Positions 1 through 9,208 of a DNA stretch of 64,000 nt are shown here, in pieces; position 1 is the first letter of the stretch; each line of letters opens with the position of its first letter. The notes below the pieces were generated by a model. The model saw only the letters and a program-made list of their open reading frames with translations. It did not search any database and had not been told where the DNA came from. Source of the DNA: a virus; the IMG/VR virus record IMGVR_UViG_3300031977_001585, positions 1-64,000 of that record; one strand, 5' to 3'. A program made the translations under genes and the position numbers.

Positions 1-3000
1 CGTGTTGATGTGCGAGTGTACTCACCAGTAAAGTTACCAGCAAAGTCACCAGCAAAACCACGTGCATAGTTACCTACGAAGTCACCAGCAAAACCACGAG
101 AGTAGTTACCGATGAAGTTACCAGCAAAGTTAGTTACTCGATCTCTAGTGAAGTCACCAACGTAGTTGGTTACACGAGTACGAGCATATGCTGAACTACG
201 GCTTCTGGTTGAAGTACGTGTGCTGTTACGTGTGTATTCACCAATGAAGTTACCTGCGAAGTTTGTTACACGGTTACGTGTGAAGTCACCAACATAGTTA
301 GTGATACGAGTACGTGCATAAGCAGAGTAACGTACACGAGTTGAAGTACGGACACTGTTACGAGTGTAGTTGCCTACAAAGTTACCAGCAAAGTTTGTAA
401 CACGGTTACGAGTAAAGTCACCAACGTAGTTAGTGATGCGAGTACGTGCGTATGCTGAATAACGAGTACGGGTTGAAGTGCGAGTAGATGTACGTGCGTA
501 GTTTCCTACGTAATCACCTGTGTAGTAACCAGTACGTACGTAGTTTCCTACGAAGTCACCTGCATAGTAACCAGTACGTGTGTAGTAACCAGTGTTGGTT
601 GACGTACGGGTTGACGTACGAGCATAGTTGCCTTCATAAGAAGCACCACGAGTACGTGCATAGTTACCTTCATAAGAAGCACCACGAGTACGTGAGTAGT
701 CACCGACATATGATGCGGCACGAGTACGTGTGTATGCTACTGTACCTACGTAATCACCAGCAAAGTTACCAACGTAGTTTCCGGTGTAGGATGCACCACG
801 ACTACGAGTGTATGCTACGTTACGGGTATAGTTGGTTGCACGAGTACGTTGATAGTTTACGGTACCTACGTAATCACCAGCAAAGTTACCTACGTAATCA
901 CCAGTATAAGTTGCGGCACGGTTACGAGTATAGTTTTGTGACCACTCACCAATGAAGTCACCTGTGAAGTCACCTGCGTAGTTTGCAGTACCGACGAAGT
1001 TACCAGTATAACTTGAAGTTCCTGTCCATGATAGACCATATCTCCATTCCGCACCATATGATACACGGAATGTACCTCTTGAATACCATACACCGTTCTT
1101 CTGTACAGAAGTTGTACCTGAAGTACCAGAAGCAAATCCAACATATACTCCGTCAGCATAGAGCATGATACCTTGCATCTCGTAGTCATATACCCACTGG
1201 GTGACGTTTGCAACGTATACGTCAGTGTTGGTCTGAGTGCCAGTAGAGGTACGTGTTGACGTAACTGAACGAGAATAGTTGACAATTGAGTTACGAGTCG
1301 AGTTAGTAGCACCACCACGTGAGTAGTCACCTGTATAGGATGCCGCACGACTACGAGTGTAGTTAGTTGCACGAGTACGAGTAAAGTTGGTCTGACGTGT
1401 GTAATCACCTAAGAAGTTACCAGTGTATCCTACTGTACGAGAGTAGTTACCAGTATAGGTGGCTGCACGTGTACGAGTATAATCTGTTGCACGAGTACGA
1501 GTAAAGTTGGTCTGACGTGTGTAGTTACCGACATACGATGCCGCACGAGTACGTGCATAGTTACCGACATACGATGCCGCACGGTTACGTGCATAGTTAC
1601 CAACATACGATGCGGCACGAGTACGTGCATAGTTACCTACGAAGTCACCTGCGTAGTATAAAGTACGAGTATATGCTAGTACACGAGTCGATGTACGTGT
1701 TGACGTACGAGTGTAATCTAGTACACGAGTCGACGTACGTACAGAGGTACGTGCGTAGTTGCCTACAAAGTCACCTGCGTAGTTGCCAGCAAACCCACGT
1801 GCGTAGTTACCAACAAAATCTCCGGTAAACGTAGTAGCATAGTTGCCTACGAAATCACCAGCAAAGTTAGTTACACGATCACGGGTATAGTTACCAGTAA
1901 AGTCACCTGTATAGTTTCCTGTGAATCCACGTGCGTAGTTACCTACGAAGTCACCAGTAAAGGTTGTCGCATAGTTACCTACGAAGTCTCCCGCAAAGTT
2001 AGTGACACGATCACGAGCATAGTTACCAATGAAGTCACCAGCAAAGTTGCCAGCAAACGCACGTGCATAGTTACCAACAAAATCTCCAACGAAATCACGG
2101 GCATAGTTGCCAATGAAGTTGCCAGCATAGTTGGTTACACGATCACGAGTATATGCTGAGTAACGAGTACGTGTTGACGTACGAGCATAAGCACTGTAAC
2201 GAGTACGAGTAGATGTACGTGTTGATACACGAGCATAGTTACCGACATAGTTGCCAGCAAACCCACGTGAGTAGTTGCCTACAAAGTTACGTGCATAGTT
2301 ACCTTGGAAACTGCGTGAGTAGTTACCAACGAAGTTACCAGCAAAGTTTGTAACACGGTTACGAGTATATGATGATACACGAACACGTGAGTAGATGCCA
2401 GCAAAGTTAGTGACACGATCACGAGTGTAGTTAGTTACACGAGTGCGGACGTAGTTATCAGAATAAGCAGAAACACGAGTACGAGTGTAAGTGCCTGCGT
2501 ATGCTGAAACACGGTTACGTGAATAAGTACCTGCGTATGCAGAGACACGGTTACGTGAGTAAGTTCCTGCATAGGTACCAGTATAAGACGACACACGAGT
2601 ACGAGTGTAGTTAGCAGAGTATGCAGAACTACGTGTACGTGAGTATGTGCCTGAGTAAGATGATACACGACCACGAGTGTACGAAGATGCACGGCTGCGT
2701 GAGAATGTACCAGTAAAGTTTGTTACACGGTTACGAGTGTATGTTGATACACGTGCTCGTGTATAAGTTCCAGCAAAGTATCCAGTGAATGCTGTTAGAC
2801 GTGTACGTGAGTAAGTCGACGTACGAGTCCTTGAGTAAACACCTGAGTATGCAGAACCACGAGTACGAGAATAGTTACCCTCGAAACCACGTGTGTAGTT
2901 TCCTGTGAAGTCACGTGAGTATGTGCCCGTGTAATCACCTACGAAAGTACGTGAGAAAGTATTGACACTATTACGTGTATATGAGGAAACACGATTTCTT

Positions 3001-3845
3001 GAGTAAGCAGAAACACGAGTTGTTACATACGATGATGGGCGTGTGCGAGTATAACTCTGATCCACGATCGTACGACGTGTGTTTGTTGCTGAACCCTTTG
3101 CCATCCAAGTACCTGCAGATGTAGGTACACCTTGTGTATCAGAACGTAATTGATACGAACCGATAGCACCAGCAGTGGCACGTAGAGTTTTTGCACGTTG
3201 ACCAAGTGTGTACTTGATCTGTGCGTCTGTCATTTCTTTAAATCCGTCGACAGAAGAACCATCATAGACAGTTGCAACTGGACGAACAACATCATAAGTA
3301 GTTGCACTTAATGATGTCTTTTTCCAAATATGGTAGTTTACAGTAGTGCCGTCTCCATGAGTATCTGTAAATACATTCTCAATATGGATACTCCAATCTA
3401 AGCCTGGAGATGTTTGAGATAGACGGAAGGATCCTTGATATTCTAATCCCGCAACGTCTTTCATGACACGTTCTGTAAGTAGGTCTAAGTCCCCGTCGTT
3501 CATTTCATAGAAACCAGGGTTAGGCCCCACGTCATAGTATCCTACTGGACGGGCAAAATCTGCACCGGACTCATCTGCTGATCCACCCACTTGCTTAAGA
3601 GCAGTAGTTGTTGTGGTACCAGTGATCTGAGATGCAGGGTGTGTCCCTGCTGGTTCGTTGTAGTACGTATCTACGAAGGAACCAATATTCACACTTCCGG
3701 TTAAACTGATATTACCGATATCACTAGCAGTGGCCTCTGCTAATGCTTCTCCAACCTTAATGGCAAGATATGCTTCTTCTGCCGGTTGGAATTCCTGTAG
3801 GTCACCATCATTAATGATTTTTAGTGGTATACTAGATGCTGACAC
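1..3845 (-). CDS. Giant stalk-and-knob repeat protein (>1281 aa, 3' end beyond the window); probable virion fibre
   Basis: Not in the ORF track because it runs off the window. GTG at 3845 gives MSASSIPLKIINDGDLQEF..., and the same frame still reads ...FAGNFTGEYTRTST at position 3. Late promoter at 3896-3903. Globular N-terminus (~3845-3060), then [FY]xG[ND]/YxRx/SxRx/Rx[STA]x tetrapeptide repeats around a central non-repetitive domain (~1020-1235). Confidence 0.9.
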   Translation of the reverse strand, partial: MSASSIPLKIINDGDLQEFQPAEEAYLAIKVGEALAEATASDIGNISLTGSVNIGSFVDTYYNEPAGTHPASQITGTTTTTALKQVGGSADESGADFARPVGYYDVGPNPGFYEMNDGDLDLLTERVMKDVAGLEYQGSFRLSQTSPGLDWSIHIENVFTDTHGDGTTVNYHIWKKTSLSATTYDVVRPVATVYDGSSVDGFKEMTDAQIKYTLGQRAKTLRATAGAIGSYQLRSDTQGVPTSAGTWMAKGSATNTRRTIVDQSYTRTRPSSYVTTRVSAYSRNRVSSYTRNSVNTFSRTFVGDYTGTYSRDFTGNYTRGFEGNYSRTRGSAYSGVYSRTRTSTYSRTRLTAFTGYFAGTYTRARVSTYTRNRVTNFTGTFSRSRASSYTRGRVSSYSGTYSRTRSSAYSANYTRTRVSSYTGTYAGTYSRNRVSAYAGTYSRNRVSAYAGTYTRTRVSAYSDNYVRTRVTNYTRDRVTNFAGIYSRVRVSSYTRNRVTNFAGNFVGNYSRSFQGNYARNFVGNYSRGFAGNYVGNYARVSTRTSTRTRYSAYARTSTRTRYSAYTRDRVTNYAGNFIGNYARDFVGDFVGNYARAFAGNFAGDFIGNYARDRVTNFAGDFVGNYATTFTGDFVGNYARGFTGNYTGDFTGNYTRDRVTNFAGDFVGNYATTFTGDFVGNYARGFAGNYAGDFVGNYARTSVRTSTRVLDYTRTSTRTSTRVLAYTRTLYYAGDFVGNYARTRAASYVGNYARNRAASYVGNYARTRAASYVGNYTRQTNFTRTRATDYTRTRAATYTGNYSRTVGYTGNFLGDYTRQTNFTRTRATNYTRSRAASYTGDYSRGGATNSTRNSIVNYSRSVTSTRTSTGTQTNTDVYVANVTQWVYDYEMQGIMLYADGVYVGFASGTSGTTSVQKNGVWYSRGTFRVSYGAEWRYGLSWTGTSSYTGNFVGTANYAGDFTGDFIGEWSQNYTRNRAATYTGDYVGNFAGDYVGTVNYQRTRATNYTRNVAYTRSRGASYTGNYVGNFAGDYVGTVAYTRTRAASYVGDYSRTRGASYEGNYARTRGASYEGNYARTSTRTSTNTGYYTRTGYYAGDFVGNYVRTGYYTGDYVGNYARTSTRTSTRTRYSAYARTRITNYVGDFTRNRVTNFAGNFVGNYTRNSVRTSTRVRYSAYARTRITNYVGDFTRNRVTNFAGNFIGEYTRNSTRTSTRSRSSAYARTRVTNYVGDFTRDRVTNFAGNFIGNYSRGFAGDFVGNYARGFAGDFAGNFTGEYTRTST

Positions 3846-4403: not shown

Positions 4404-7400
4404 TTAACTTCTCGTTACTTGATAATAGGTCATAATAGGTCCACCAGAGTAGTCTGTCTCGATGTAATTTCCACGAGTATATGTGAATCCACCAGTTGTT
4501 ATTGTAGTATCATTTTCACTCTGACCTGATAGTGGTTCAGAAAAATACACTTCAGTCCCATTCCATCGAATCTGTATCGTCACAAGATCTTCACCTTCTG
4601 GACTAGGAACAAGTGATACTCTCCACCAAGTGCCAGAGTTAGACGTATCTGTCGTCTGAGGTGGTGGTTCTGAGTTGACATCTGACGAAGTAGGTGCTAC
4701 CGAAACCGGAGTAGTTACCAAATAACTACCTGCTGTGATCCATTGACTACCATTGAACACTTTTATATCATAGGTATATGATGTCCCATTAGGTGGGATC
4801 TCATTTACCGTGAAGTTATTTAGACCACTTGTTACTGTAACATCTGTTAAAATGAGAGCATTATCACGATAAACTCTCAACGACACAGGAGTAGACCCCT
4901 CTGTCAAATGTGTTACTGACAGTTGATGTGTTGTGTCATTTTCCGGATGCACTATTCGATTAGAGGTTGTGGCAAAAATACCCGAATCATTATCATATAA
5001 CGTGAACTCTTTCTCCGCAAGAACCTCAACGTTGCTACTACCCATTGGTTCGTTGATACTGGAAGTGTCATTCCCAGTACGTAACTGTGCCCTGAAGGTT
5101 TCTCCTTGCCATCCCATTTCTCCAACACCGGCTGATACTGTACTGGTTCGTGTATAGTTGCCTATGAACTCACCCGTATAATACGTCTTGGCACCATCGG
5201 AGTATGAAGAGGTTCTAGTTCTTATAAAGTCTCTAGTTGAGGTTCTAGTAGAATTCCTTGTCGATGGTACATAATTCGCATAGTTCCCCAAGTAACTTGG
5301 TGTCCTCACATAACTGCGTGAATCTGTAAAGTCACGTGTATAGTTACCTGTAAAGTTACCAGTGTACTCTCCAATAAAGGACAACACCCTACTGAAAGCA
5401 GTGACTCTTATATCGGTTCGAGAACTAACACGTGTGTAGTAAGAGATCGGATATCTACTATATGAGTCTACAATGTTGCGACTATAATTACCTTCGTAGT
5501 TACCTTCATACGATGGAGATCTGCTATACGTTCCTGTATAGTCACCTATGAAATCTCCAACAAATGATCTCTGATAGTTGCCCTCAAAATTACCACCGAA
5601 GTCTCGATTATAGTTTCCGGTGAATGTACCAGCATAGGAGAACACGGACTCTCGTACACGAGTTGACGTACGACTAGACGTTCGTTGATAGTTAACCGCA
5701 TGATTCTCTACACTACCTTCTATGATGACTTGTCGAGTAGACGCACCTACATAATCTCCCGTATAGATGCGAGTATAAATTCCAGTTCTCTCATAGTTAC
5801 CCGTATACTGACCAGCAAAGTTTCTGTTATAAGTTCCTGTGTATTCCGATACAAATCCTCTTTCATAATTGCCTAAGAAACCTGGTGTGTATGTGCTAAC
5901 TCGGTTTTTAAGATATGTGCTGTATCTGGTAACAACCCTTCCACTTGTCTTGGTTGATATTCGAGAGTTCTCTCCCACGAAATTACGTGTATAATATCCA
6001 AATATCTCGACCATACCACCCGCATCGGGATCGAATATAAATCGACTAGAAACTTTTGTGACGTTGCCGACAAAGGATCGAGTGTAATTTCCAAAATAAC
6101 TTCTACTATAGTCCCCATTATAAGCACGACCATAATTACCAATATAGGTAAGAGTACCTGTATATGAAGAGACTCTATTTCTAGTAGAACTACCTCCCAC
6201 CGATCTAATCCGTTGATAGTTACCTATAAAGTCTCGGGTATAATTGCCTACAAAGTTTTGACTAGCAGTTGGTGTGCTTGTACTGGTGTTTTCTGCTATT
6301 TTATAATCTTCAACAAATGTAGTGGCAGTTTGAAGTGTCCCTCTATGATAATATTTACCTCCTACAGGACCGACAATGGATGATACTCTTGCATCAGCCA
6401 TACTATCGTATGCACTACTGGTGTAAACGAGTGTTCCATTGTAGTATAATTGAATAAAGTATTCGTACGTAATATCTCCTCTACCGTCACCAAATCCACC
6501 TTCTACGAATCGAGCAAGTCTCCATACGTATTGAGGATTACCATTAGTGATAGAATATAAGAACGGATCAGACCCACTACCACTGACTCTGGTTCGTTCG
6601 TAGGTAGAGGTTCTAGTTCTCTCGTAGTTGCCTTCGTACGAAGCATTTCCCGTAAAATTACCCACAAACGTACGAGAGTAAGTTGAGGTTCTTGAGTAGT
6701 TCCCCTCAAAGTTGCGAGAGTAATTACCGACAAACGTACGAGAGTATCCCCCTTCATATGACTCGACACGTGTACGTGTATAGTCTACCAGATTTGCGTA
6801 CGAAGACGTTCTGGTTCGAGCAAACTCACCAGTATAAGTAATCGTTCTGGTGTAGTTACCTACGAAACCACGTTGATAGTTACCAACAAACGTTCGGGTG
6901 CTCTCTGTCCCACCCCTAGTTCGAGTGTATGCGGAGATTCGAGTTCGAGCATAAGTTCCGTCGTATGTGGACAGTCTTGCTCTCGTTGAGATTCTTTGAT
7001 ACGGCACTTGTCGGGTAGATGTTATCGAGTATCGATAACGGCCATAATTTACCTGTGGAACGTAATCCCCTATGAAGTTGCCCAGAAAATTTCCAGTGTA
7101 GGTTAGAGTTCGAGTAAAGTCGAATGGTCTTTGTCTTTGATAAGACGATACTCGTGTTCGACTTGATACTCGATTATACGCAGAAAGTCTCGTGCGTGTA
7201 GACGTACGAGTAAATGTCTTCGACGTTGACAACTCTGGTATTCGAGTTCTAGTGTAATTACCAGCGTAGTTAGACGGACGGTTTCGTTGATACGTCTCGG
7301 TATATGTACCTGGTCTATAGGTTATCTCAAGTCTACCTTCTGGGTCATTCGGTATAGGATTCCAGTTGTAGTAGATGGTGCCCGTATAAAATCTTGAGTA

Positions 7401-8807
7401 GTTACCCTCGAATGATAACCCGTCTGAGTAATTACGTTCGAATGTACTCGTACGTGTACTATTCCTTGTCGACAGTCGAGTGTATAGACCTTCATAGTCA
7501 ACTGTTCTTACATAGTCACCCGTGTACCCTATTGTCCTTGTGCTTGTTCTAGTATAAGTGCTAAGACGGGTATAGTCTCCGGTAAAGTCTCCGGTATAGT
7601 ACCCTATTGTATTACCAATAAAGTCACGGTTGAATCCTGTTGCAATATCAACGATTGACTGTCTGGTAAACGACCCTGTTCTTTCAATGGTTACATTATA
7701 TGATGTAGTGTCATTATAAGAGACAAACGTTGCTGTATGCGCAGACCCCGTAAATGTAGAAAAGTTTGCAGTAAAGTCTTTCTGTGCTACACCGTCTGAC
7801 CCTGAGAGTCTGAATAATTTAACGTGATAATTGTTAGGTTCGTTAGTCGTTGCTATTAGACTAATCGATTGTCCTTCAATTATATTATCGACACTAGAGA
7901 ATTGCAATGCTCCCTGTAGACTAGATTCCTCTTCGTTTTGTTGACTAGTTCCTGAAGAAGACCCTTCTAGTTTGGCCGCAAACAATGCGTTCAGGTTCCT
8001 GAAGTTTTGATATATTTCTTGTAGACCTGACTCATCATAGTTAATTAAGATAGAGTCGTAATACCGAACCTGTGTAGTGCTGAACCCCAGTCCGTACAGA
8101 TTAGTTGTAATTTGGTTGTCTTGAAAAGCACCACTAATAGCACCGGATAAAGACCATTCAATATTAATATAGCATCCAGCACTATGATTTAAAAACGGGT
8201 TGCCTAAGACGGTCCAGTTCTGACTTGGTGGTAGATAGGTTTCAATATTAAAAATATTATTGGTGATAAGTGCTCTGGAATCAAAAGCAATTCTACCCTG
8301 TGATGTCTTTATCTGTAGACCATATTCATCGTCGTTTAACGCAGATGAATTTTCTATAATCTCTGCTGTCTCACGGACAATAAAGTAGTCCATGTCCACA
8401 TCCCAATCAGCAGTCACATAGGTCTGGTTTAAATATCCACCATTGGTAAGTCCACGACCTTTGAATCTGTAGGTATTGCTTAGTGCATCACTTGCCGTTC
8501 GTGCTAGGAAAAACACTTCAGGGTTTGAGATAGTAACGTCTTGCGTAGTCCCATTAAAATTGGTAATTGCGTCGGGTACAACTATTGGACCAAATCCGGT
8601 TCCAGTTAAATCTGGATTGTATCCGGTTGCGGTTGGACGTTTTACAAAGACAAAGTCTTCTTTGGTGAGTTCGGAATCTAAGGTAAACGAATGCCCACGA
8701 CCTGCTGCTACAACTCTGTAGTTAAGAAGATCGAGAGTAGTATCGGCAATAATGAAATTGTTACCGTTGCCGTCATTGCCTTGTACCTTTAGACCGTAGG
8801 TCATCAT
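4404..8807 (-). CDS. 1467-aa fibre-like protein with a mirror-repeat stalk inserted in a Calx-beta-like domain
   Basis: N-terminal YGL[KQ].....G...FDS motifs; the same tetrapeptide repeats as the 1-3845 ORF; central and C-terminal copies of a ~70-aa aromatic domain; flanked by chaperone genes. Confidence 0.85.
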   Translation of the reverse strand: MMTYGLKVQGNDGNGNNFIIADTTLDLLNYRVVAAGRGHSFTLDSELTKEDFVFVKRPTATGYNPDLTGTGFGPIVVPDAITNFNGTTQDVTISNPEVFFLARTASDALSNTYRFKGRGLTNGGYLNQTYVTADWDVDMDYFIVRETAEIIENSSALNDDEYGLQIKTSQGRIAFDSRALITNNIFNIETYLPPSQNWTVLGNPFLNHSAGCYINIEWSLSGAISGAFQDNQITTNLYGLGFSTTQVRYYDSILINYDESGLQEIYQNFRNLNALFAAKLEGSSSGTSQQNEEESSLQGALQFSSVDNIIEGQSISLIATTNEPNNYHVKLFRLSGSDGVAQKDFTANFSTFTGSAHTATFVSYNDTTSYNVTIERTGSFTRQSIVDIATGFNRDFIGNTIGYYTGDFTGDYTRLSTYTRTSTRTIGYTGDYVRTVDYEGLYTRLSTRNSTRTSTFERNYSDGLSFEGNYSRFYTGTIYYNWNPIPNDPEGRLEITYRPGTYTETYQRNRPSNYAGNYTRTRIPELSTSKTFTRTSTRTRLSAYNRVSSRTRVSSYQRQRPFDFTRTLTYTGNFLGNFIGDYVPQVNYGRYRYSITSTRQVPYQRISTRARLSTYDGTYARTRISAYTRTRGGTESTRTFVGNYQRGFVGNYTRTITYTGEFARTRTSSYANLVDYTRTRVESYEGGYSRTFVGNYSRNFEGNYSRTSTYSRTFVGNFTGNASYEGNYERTRTSTYERTRVSGSGSDPFLYSITNGNPQYVWRLARFVEGGFGDGRGDITYEYFIQLYYNGTLVYTSSAYDSMADARVSSIVGPVGGKYYHRGTLQTATTFVEDYKIAENTSTSTPTASQNFVGNYTRDFIGNYQRIRSVGGSSTRNRVSSYTGTLTYIGNYGRAYNGDYSRSYFGNYTRSFVGNVTKVSSRFIFDPDAGGMVEIFGYYTRNFVGENSRISTKTSGRVVTRYSTYLKNRVSTYTPGFLGNYERGFVSEYTGTYNRNFAGQYTGNYERTGIYTRIYTGDYVGASTRQVIIEGSVENHAVNYQRTSSRTSTRVRESVFSYAGTFTGNYNRDFGGNFEGNYQRSFVGDFIGDYTGTYSRSPSYEGNYEGNYSRNIVDSYSRYPISYYTRVSSRTDIRVTAFSRVLSFIGEYTGNFTGNYTRDFTDSRSYVRTPSYLGNYANYVPSTRNSTRTSTRDFIRTRTSSYSDGAKTYYTGEFIGNYTRTSTVSAGVGEMGWQGETFRAQLRTGNDTSSINEPMGSSNVEVLAEKEFTLYDNDSGIFATTSNRIVHPENDTTHQLSVTHLTEGSTPVSLRVYRDNALILTDVTVTSGLNNFTVNEIPPNGTSYTYDIKVFNGSQWITAGSYLVTTPVSVAPTSSDVNSEPPPQTTDTSNSGTWWRVSLVPSPEGEDLVTIQIRWNGTEVYFSEPLSGQSENDTTITTGGFTYTRGNYIETDYSGGPIMTYYQVTRS

Positions 8808-9208
8808 CCAACCCTTATCGCAATAACGTCTATGGTTTTATATTCCCATAGTTCTTGTGGAAGGGGAGTGTGTAAATATCTAACATCTTGTAAAGACACC
8901 TGAATTCTATCATTAGTCCAACCACTAGAAATACCTGTAGGAGAATCTTTACTGATTCTGGTAATATAAATTCGTGTGTAGTAATTTAGATTGGCAGGTT
9001 TTCTCACAAGACTGACAATAATATTATTGGTGTCAGATGCGTCCGGACATTCAAGTAGGGTGGAGTCACTCGGCCAGGCAAGAGAAAATGTTTCTCTTAG
9101 TTGGATATTACTGGTTCTTATATTATCAGAGAATACGACTTCAGGTTGAACAAATGTACCATCCTCTTGCTCAATTTTAGGGCCGTATAGTTGGATACCA
9201 TAACTCAT
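8804..9208 (-). CDS. Small structural protein (MSYGIQLYG... type found after tail-tip fibres)
   Basis: 134 aa, translationally coupled to the next gene; N-terminus resembles that of 4404-8807. Confidence 0.6.
   Translation of the reverse strand: MSYGIQLYGPKIEQEDGTFVQPEVVFSDNIRTSNIQLRETFSLAWPSDSTLLECPDASDTNNIIVSLVRKPANLNYYTRIYITRISKDSPTGISSGWTNDRIQVSLQDVRYLHTPLPQELWEYKTIDVIAIRVG

Follow-up and report, generated by a model that had tools for sequence, protein, structure and literature searches.

The virus DNA analysed here (the window, comprising the first 64 kb of the 78.5-kb IMG/VR virus record IMGVR_UViG_3300031977_001585) encodes a 1467-residue tail-fibre-module protein, P0001, and we conclude with good confidence that residues 379–1227 of this protein form a fold-back stalk that is clamped at both ends in one immunoglobulin (Ig)-like β-sandwich, in what is proposed to be a homotrimer bearing receptor-binding knobs. 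The evidence that we regard as decisive comes from comparing homologous proteins, namely insertions and deletions (indels) of equal length at mirrored places of the two stalk arms, arm lengths that vary together, and natural homologues in which the two flanks of the stalk are contiguous. An initial annotation made from the nucleotide sequence had described the same region as a mirror repeat of ~860 aa inserted into one loop of a Calx-beta-like domain; the size was close, the insert being 849 aa (379–1227), and the central knob that it placed at ~6285–6570 corresponds to aa 747–842, the sole central part that AlphaFold2 modelled confidently. The layout of the protein and of the adjoining genes is listed in Table 1.

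Pairwise alignment of homologues revealed that a length change in arm 1 is matched by an equal change in arm 2. Compared with P0003 (76% identical), P0001 carries 16 additional residues at position 707 in arm 1 and 16 at 909 in arm 2, and compared with P0004 (60% identical) 36 additional residues at 533 in arm 1 and 36 at 1090 in arm 2; in both comparisons, the matched pairs are the sole arm indels of at least five residues. Matched pairs were likewise found between P0032 and P0033 (38 residues at 555 in arm 1 and 38 at 929 in arm 2), P0014 and P0018 (52 at 419 and 52 at 984), P0015 and P0029 (22 at 396 and 22 at 1238), and P0009 and P0011 (18 at 689 and 18 at 822). The positions of the two P0001 pairs sum to 1616 and 1623, whereas they differ by 202 and 557, and the near-constant sums together with the unlike differences therefore indicate that the arms are related in an antiparallel, mirrored manner rather than in parallel. 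All matched indels were of even length, which keeps the in/out alternation of residues along a β-strand. The two inserts of each matched pair were unlike each other, in several events one being Gly-rich and the other Ser/Thr/Arg-rich, and no DNA-level inverted repeat was found between the arms of P0001; judging from these alignments, the matched inserts are separate events held together by selection and not copies of each other.

Supportively, the knob was found mid-insert in all of 29 homologues, and the lengths of their two arms (251–453 vs 303–479 residues) correlated with r = 0.90. When each protein was used only once, in 14 pairs, the changes in arm length correlated with r = 0.88 and had the same sign in 13 of them. 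Among more distant repeat proteins, arm lengths segmented by a hidden Markov model (HMM) gave r = 0.40, with boundaries too fuzzy for this measure. As traced by block boundaries, the mirror register of P0001 was ~1592 beside the knob, ~1613–1623 in mid-stalk, where the change follows a non-repeat bulge in arm 2, and ~1598–1606 near the base. This course agrees both with the indel positions and with the two mirror sums of the initial annotation, which in protein numbering are i + j = 1592 for the pairs close to the knob and 1598 for those of the outer stem. Thus, comparison of the homologues showed that the two arms are held to equal length in mirrored register, and the matched mirrored indels together with the co-varying arm lengths support the hairpin that the initial annotation had envisaged.

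The course of the chain at the stalk base was then derived from structure prediction and from natural variants. An AlphaFold2 monomer model of aa 296–1290 (995 residues, 26 aligned sequences) contained five predicted sandwich strands in the N-flank and two in the C-flank, with predicted local distance difference test (pLDDT) values of 52–88 per 10-residue block (mostly 76–88) in the N-flank, 82–85 in the C-flank and 73–87 in most of the knob. In a VIA fold search with this model, Ig-like sandwiches of the PDB aligned over 85–100 residues (Z 7–8.1, root-mean-square deviation (rmsd) 2.5–3.4), and the aligned model range, from 1 to ~980, places both flanks inside one domain. The matches included domain 3 of HAP2 (Z 8.1), the macroglobulin (MG) domains of complement C3/C4/C5 and α2-macroglobulin (Z 7.0–7.4), and invasin; by sequence, the N-flank gave chance-level matches only against the PDB. 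When the N-flank (296–395) and the C-flank (1200–1290) were predicted as two chains, the interaction prediction score from aligned errors (ipSAE) was 0.62, compared with 0.01 for the best control; this score, which is the model's own confidence, is reached by 58 of 80 solved complexes and by 2 of 110 mismatched pairs. Contacts agreed by at least 50% between the two-chain runs at a partner pLDDT of at least 53, and placed strand 326–332 against 1238–1245 and residues 300–301 against 1264. Two further comparisons were set aside on account of the low confidence of the modelled arms: a Foldseek comparison of this model with viral ones, which was meaningless, and VIA matches of the arms to outer-membrane β-barrels (Z ~7, rmsd 7–8).

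Natural homologues without the insert were obtained by an exhaustive HMMER search with aa 1–378 against 1.84 billion representatives, which identified five such proteins, P0124 (637 aa), P0126 (630 aa), P0127 (519 aa), P0128 (638 aa) and P0130 (648 aa); a word-based search for shorter homologues had yielded one fragment only. In these proteins the N-flank is followed by the C-flank within two or three residues (...TFTAKND-GVA-ETGWQGENFTVEL...), and two Ig-like domains follow the joined sandwich. A 90%-identical copy of P0124 is encoded in the IMG/VR contig L032, where the gene order is as in the window: the DUF4815 giant protein, a fibre protein of ~1000 aa, a small open reading frame (ORF), the split-domain gene, a 159-aa chaperone and a large stalk protein. 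The contiguous flanks of the insert-less homologues, together with the models, therefore define the insertion point as the loop between '...xND' and 'E-x-G-W-Q-G-E-x-F'. The split domain claimed at the outset is thus upheld by the monomer model, by the two-chain prediction and by five natural proteins with joined flanks, one of them in syntenic position, and neither flank proved to be a complete domain on its own. Taken with the modelled contacts, these homologues showed that the two ends of the insert meet in one sandwich domain. The split sandwich is restricted to the P0001 family.

As for the Calx-beta-like label, the Ig-like sandwich resemblance held, whereas membership of the Calx-beta family was not demonstrated. 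Neither the whole protein, nor either flank, nor the intact domains of the insert-less homologues matched PF03160 (gathering score 27 bits) in Pfam at E ≤ 10, and a six-frame search of the record at E ≤ 1 found no such domain. Against a Calx-beta profile built from 23 natural domains of Verrucomicrobiota genomes, the alignment of intact and joined-flank domains reached an hhalign probability of 33% (P = 4.4e-4, 76 co-linear columns), with a global score of 21.6 against 2.5 ± 1.9 (maximum 8.7) for column shuffles; the probabilities ranged over 15–33% overall, and the joined flanks by themselves gave P = 0.012 compared with 0.022 for a control with the flanks in swapped order. The two share a seven-strand β-sandwich of ~110 residues, a fold common to many families and hence non-discriminating, and the co-linear motifs V-x-R-x-x-G-x-x-G, D-[FY] and N-D ... 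E-x-G-W-Q-G-E-x-F-x-x-x-L with a terminal L-Y-D-[ND]-D, including E-x-x-E-x-F-x-x-x-L in the acidic loop and D-x-D at the end. The stalk insertion sits in this acidic loop, between 'xND' and 'ExxExF'. Unlike Calx-beta domains, the host domain of P0001 lacks the 'Y-x-T-x-dGTA-x-AG' segment, and its best structural matches are the complement/α2-macroglobulin MG domains and HAP2 domain 3. A relationship to Calx-beta is therefore not established; the host domain bears at most a distant, strand-deleted resemblance to it, for which 'Calx-beta-like Ig sandwich' is a fair description.

To characterise the repeats of the arms, a three-state HMM was trained unsupervised on 29 homologues and was given no mirror information. 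Its three states were A, rich in G/N/Y/F (FxGNYxR), B, rich in T/S/R/Y (RxRxSxY), and a globular or non-repeat state. When the units were anchored on Y.R, A and B proved to be forms of a single octapeptide, which reads G(a) N(b) Y(c) x R(e) x F(g) x in A and S(a) x Y(c) x R(e) x R(g) x in B; arm 1 is enriched in B units and arm 2 in A units, and among the 20 Y.R-anchored units of arm 2, position a was Gly in 16, b was Asn in 12 and g was Phe or Tyr in 11. The two arms together contain one His, no Cys and no HxH motif. The 12 residue pairs on which the initial annotation had built its pairing code (G with R, F with S, Y with Y) were all present at the residues given (e.g. F852-R740, G854-R738 and Y856-Y736, or Y1156-Y442 and G1154-R444). 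They are exactly what an antiparallel register with Tyr opposite Tyr produces, since this register sets R at e against G or S at a, and F against R at the two g positions. Over 12 family representatives in the Tyr-fixed register, F-R pairs at g-g exceeded expectation (162 vs 132.6), R-R pairs fell short of it (17 vs 26.1) and F-F pairs were neutral, and a banded mirror alignment scored higher than its second-half-reversed control in all 12. These family-wide counts point to a tendency against Arg facing Arg rather than to strict complementarity; some matched insertions set A opposite A, consistent with the former.

Within P0001 alone, the statistical significance of the code did not hold. Mirror alignment by Tyr only recovered 23 Y-Y pairs with sums of 1591–1598, which are the registers of the initial annotation (z = 4.8 against shuffles of 24-aa blocks). 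Gapped mirror alignment of the A/B track, with linear or affine gaps, gave z values of 0.6, 0.2 and -0.4, below the parallel-identity alignment; the best ungapped anti-diagonal, at an aa sum of 1597, was reached by 90 of 300 shuffles; the banded alignment gave z = 1.5, within a range of -0.9 to 2.4 over the 12 representatives; and global mutual information per anti-diagonal was blurred by the register shifts. These mixed results thus leave the code in P0001 alone not clearly above the level of a periodic repeat.

Several observations weigh against a stalk that folds back on itself within each chain. The arms were modelled at low confidence in the AlphaFold2 monomer (pLDDT 25–38), their pairing being deduced from evolution. 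In P0001, the complementarity of A blocks opposite B blocks stayed within the run-shuffle range in gapped, ungapped and banded tests alike (z ~0.2–1.5), and F-R pairs at g-g in the Tyr-fixed register numbered 10 against 10.2 expected. Reversing the second half as a control left the Tyr-only mirror score equally high, since a periodic array of a single letter is identical in either direction; this score therefore does not distinguish antiparallel from parallel arms. Finally, matched mirrored indels by themselves fit antiparallel pairing within one chain and between chains alike.

The shuffle and parallel-control results, and the many registers in which BLAST aligns repeat proteins of this kind, are what would be seen if the repeat regions followed one another along a straight fibre, separated by a nodule, and if periodic, low-complexity repetition had produced the mirror pattern and the likeness of the flanks as by-products. 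Such a linear shaft is already strongly disfavoured, and we judge it very improbable: it does not account for the mirrored indels, equal and even in length, of six or more separate comparisons, for the correlation of r = 0.88 between independent arm-length changes, or for the natural homologues with adjacent flanks. Pairing between chains would fit the mirrored indels, the equal arms and the complementation of the flanks just as well; here, extended chains would join arm 1 antiparallel to arm 2 of a partner in a domain-swapped, head-to-tail manner, the partner's C-flank would complete the N-flank, and the knobs would lie halfway along a rod of double length. We consider this arrangement quite unlikely, because the insert-less homologues build the sandwich from one continuous chain and a single chain likewise closes the domain in the AlphaFold2 monomer. 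Phage fibres, moreover, are polar and attached at one end, the D10/D11 region of T4 gp37 folds back per chain (PMC6957217), and many relatives end exactly past arm 2, which suits a C-terminus that comes back to the base.

According to the intra-chain fold-back that we favour, the chain would exit the sandwich by one loop and run outward through ~365 residues of octapeptide β repeats, a knob of 96 residues would form at the stalk tip, and the chain would return over ~385 residues, antiparallel to and touching the outgoing arm within each chain, to re-enter the starting sandwich and supply its last two strands, whereby the sandwich would clamp both stalk ends. The stalk could then lengthen or shorten only by an equal change in both arms, and since the ends of the hairpin would lie together, the stalk-knob unit could be spliced into a loop. 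P0001 is probably a homotrimer, as the characterised phage fibres are trimers and a Tfa chaperone gene adjoins, and its stalk would accordingly be a rod of six chain segments, with the conserved face of every second residue (Tyr, Arg, Phe/Arg, Gly/Ser) as its core. The rod would measure ~110 nm with axial strands like those of the gp37 stem, or ~40 nm with strands wound into a gp5C-like prism, and the distal knob and its C-terminal copy would be the receptor-binding part. A monomer with the same fold-back, in which a two-stranded β ribbon projects from a string of Ig domains, would suit the host scaffold (the N-terminal domain, the sandwich and one or two Ig-like domains), which resembles monomeric decoration proteins, and the pLDDT of >90 of the knob as a single chain. 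We nevertheless find it unlikely: a two-stranded ribbon of >300 residue pairs is without precedent and would have little buried core, the conserved residues at every second position form one conserved face that needs a partner, the chaperone encoded next door is of the Tfa type typical of trimeric fibres, and the type A octapeptide matches the pattern of the trimeric gp5C β-helix (PMC3004832).

Modelled with short arm stubs (aa 720–872), the central knob reached a pLDDT of mostly 91–96, with one loop block at 60. Among PDB folds, the best VIA match had a Z of 3.7 (48,161 chains, none with Z ≥ 5) and the best Foldseek match an E of 0.35, and a search of the ESM Atlas returned nothing usable. 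The knob may thus have a novel fold as modelled, with the provisos that a weak match is no proof and that a knob made of three intertwined chains might resemble nothing known when modelled as a monomer. The C-terminal 83 residues of P0001 are a second copy of the knob, as detected by hhalign (90.5%, E = 1.3e-6), a knob HMM (E = 5.4e-6) and BLASTP (E = 0.002). This copy is found only in the clade P0001–P0004, where it follows a Pro/Thr/Ser-rich linker; other family members end shortly past the Ig-like domain, and the insert-less forms carry the second Ig-like domain at that place. Between clades, the knob sequence is the least conserved part, as expected of a receptor-binding tip.

The arm-knob-arm unit is far wider in occurrence than the split sandwich and terminates proteins that have no sandwich. 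The neighbouring P0122, the first of the two stalk proteins in the window, is built of the same octapeptides and keeps a single mirror register throughout, at which mutual information peaks (aa sum 1813–1815, z ~5). In its full-length homologue in L032 (10543-15618; 1691 aa), an 88-aa knob is flanked by arms of 664 and 681 aa and the chain stops directly after arm 2; of 36 distant two-arm repeat proteins, 35 stop no more than ~30 residues from arm 2, the majority precisely at its end. With the unit terminal in these proteins and internal in P0001, it therefore serves either as a C-terminal module or as an internal cassette. The portability of the insert suggested in the initial annotation is supported, given that the host gene also exists without the insert and that the unit ends other proteins. 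When copying of the insert from the neighbouring stalk gene was tested, BLAST aligned the two in many registers with similar scores, so that no donor can be named. Going further, the stalk may represent a new fibrous assembly, a self-complementary rod whose length is set by matched repeat pairs lying far apart in the gene, with a knob fold not yet known among solved structures, which could act as a graftable cassette for retargeting or extending fibres and which phages would have moved between the C-terminal position and internal loops of unrelated domains; we put this forward tentatively, as plausible but somewhat short of probable.

P0001 follows the fold-back logic of T4 gp37, which is its closest solved precedent. 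In gp37, the collar domain D10 (811–881 and 1010–1026) is split by the D11 stem and tip (882–1009; PDB 2XGF), and the D11 arms (882–931 and 960–1009) enclose a tip that is an insertion in the stem and bears the receptor sites (PMC6957217). Both proteins thus have a small base domain split by an elongated two-arm insertion with a tip between the arms, and in both a chaperone gene accompanies the fibre gene. However, the arms of P0001 (~365–385 residues) are approximately seven times longer than those of gp37 (~50), consist of octapeptide repeats of two types and carry none of the HxH iron-coordinating motifs of gp37; its base is an Ig-like sandwich and not a gp12-type collar; and past the base its chain continues through a further Ig-like domain to a second, briefly tethered knob. 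No sequence similarity to the gp37/gp12 collar was detectable in Pfam, PHROG or a phmmer search against all PDB chain sequences, the latter giving no match of any kind at E ≤ 1. What is new in P0001 is the internal insertion into a domain loop, the natural pair with and without the insert in synteny, and the duplicated knob.

Two other systems share some of these features. The rule for the octapeptides of the intertwined gp5C triple β-helix is that position a holds Gly, b Asn/Asp and g a hydrophobic residue (PMC3004832). The arms of P0001 share the eight-residue period of T4 gp5C, and their type A units obey this rule; gp5C, however, forms a parallel helix in a single pass and lacks a return arm, whereas P0001 alternates these units with a second type (S at a, R at g) and requires arms of equal length. 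In bovine antibodies with an ultralong third complementarity-determining region of the heavy chain (CDR-H3), a stalk of ~12–20 residues per strand carries a disulfide-bonded knob; they resemble P0001 in having a β-ribbon stalk and a variable binding knob in a loop of an Ig-type domain, but P0001 has ~370 residues per arm, has no cysteines, is probably trimeric as a fibre, and is unrelated in sequence and origin. Searches of the literature on the fibres of cyanophages and marine myoviruses brought up no account of a fold-back or repeat fibre of the P0001 kind, and a wider search on fold-back fibres yielded only a note from the 13th Critical Assessment of Structure Prediction (CASP13) on mis-predicted models.

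A receptor-binding knob encoded in the middle of a gene, at the end of a very long fold-back rod in place of a single-pass shaft, would mean that the tip of the fibre is not its C-terminus, which bears on how such fibre genes are annotated and engineered. Fibre length evolves by paired, even-length indels in two distant gene segments, a compensation at the protein level that is legible in the sequence alone. The occurrence of the same gene with and without the 849-residue cassette in syntenic position is natural evidence that a loop of a folded domain can accept a grafted stalk-knob unit, and the cassette is accordingly a candidate scaffold for holding binding domains at a chosen distance and for host-range swaps in marine T4-like phages, the receptors of which are mostly unknown. 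With its confident model and no solved structural relative, the knob is a worthwhile target for structure determination.

Table 1. Positions in the window of the P0001 gene, the parts of its product and two adjoining genes.
Feature	Position	Strand	Evidence
Whole gene P0001, tail-fibre-module protein, 1467 aa	4404..8807	minus	ORF and translation; ~35 near-full-length metagenomic homologues; baseplate wedge and fibre neighbours
N-terminal domain, aa 1–290	7938..8807	minus	phmmer across homologues; conserved in the family and in insert-less homologues (HMMER, 1.84 billion representatives)
N-flank, aa 296–378, first five strands of the split β-sandwich	7674..7922	minus	pLDDT; contacts with the C-flank; contiguous with it in P0124 and four others
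Arm 1 (outgoing), aa 379–746, octapeptide repeats, enriched in type B (R at g)	6570..7673	minus	HMM track; position table; indels at aa 533 and 707
Central knob, aa 747–842, compact domain at the predicted hairpin turn	6282..6569	minus	pLDDT; sequence most divergent between clades
Arm 2 (returning), aa 843–1227, octapeptide repeats, enriched in type A (G at a, F at g)	5127..6281	minus	HMM track; position table; indels at aa 909 and 1090
C-flank, aa 1228–1276, last two strands of the sandwich (EMGWQGETFRAQL ... EFTLYDND)	4980..5126	minus	pLDDT 82–85; strand pairing; invariant residues
Second Ig-like (E-set-like) domain, aa 1277–1366	4710..4979	minus	Conserved in homologues; duplicated in insert-less forms; weak TcfC E-set match below cut-off
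C-terminal knob, aa 1385–1467, homologous to the central knob	4407..4655	minus	hhalign; knob HMM; BLASTP
Tfa-type tail-fibre assembly chaperone, directly downstream of P0001	3923..4402	minus	PF16778 (E = 5.7e-16) and phrog_4912; syntenic 159-aa homologue in L032
Paralogous first stalk protein P0122, cut by the contig end, same octapeptides	3..3845	minus	Mutual information

Non-repeat stretches interrupt the arms at 7287-7442, 5997-6074 and 5685-5732 (aa 456–507, 912–937 and 1026–1041), where they displace the mirror register by ~16–36 residues and may be bulges or side loops; the one in arm 1 (NWNPIPNDPEG...) recurs at the matching relative place in several homologues. The N-terminal domain (aa 1–290), presumed to be the attachment end, has no Pfam or PHROG name and is homologous to ~30 clusters of stand-alone proteins of 210–280 aa (P0132–P0161; E = 1e-4 to 1e-17). 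The stand-alone relatives, of ~230 aa, likewise have no PHROG name, and they may share with P0001 an attachment or adaptor domain. Searched whole and in pieces against Pfam and PHROGs, P0001 matched no family, the sole match being a sub-threshold TcfC E-set at aa 1277–1366. Whereas ~35 metagenomic proteins have its full architecture, deposited phages contributed one match, a 3347-aa hypothetical protein of the Kyanoviridae phage C48C1 (OQ984149.1, L001:10903-20946), in which repeats of these types total >1000 residues and form several blocks between globular segments.

The gene lies in a T4-like tail/baseplate block together with the baseplate wedge PHROGs 438 and 219, a tube-cap protein, a tape-measure protein, the DUF4815 giant protein, a 993-aa fibre protein and two Tfa-type fibre chaperones (PF16778). 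A small ORF of 134 aa (8804-9208, minus strand), for which no Pfam or PHROG family was found, overlaps the start of P0001 by 4 nt; its synteny is conserved, and the counterpart at L032:7699-8001 has 100 aa and is 32% identical to the 134-aa version. The sole cellular-genome relative of the downstream Tfa chaperone in a pattern scan was a segment of the Verrucomicrobiota metagenome-assembled genome JBAXNG010000016.1 (59134-61261), which is 57% identical to it and may be a prophage remnant or a hint of the host.

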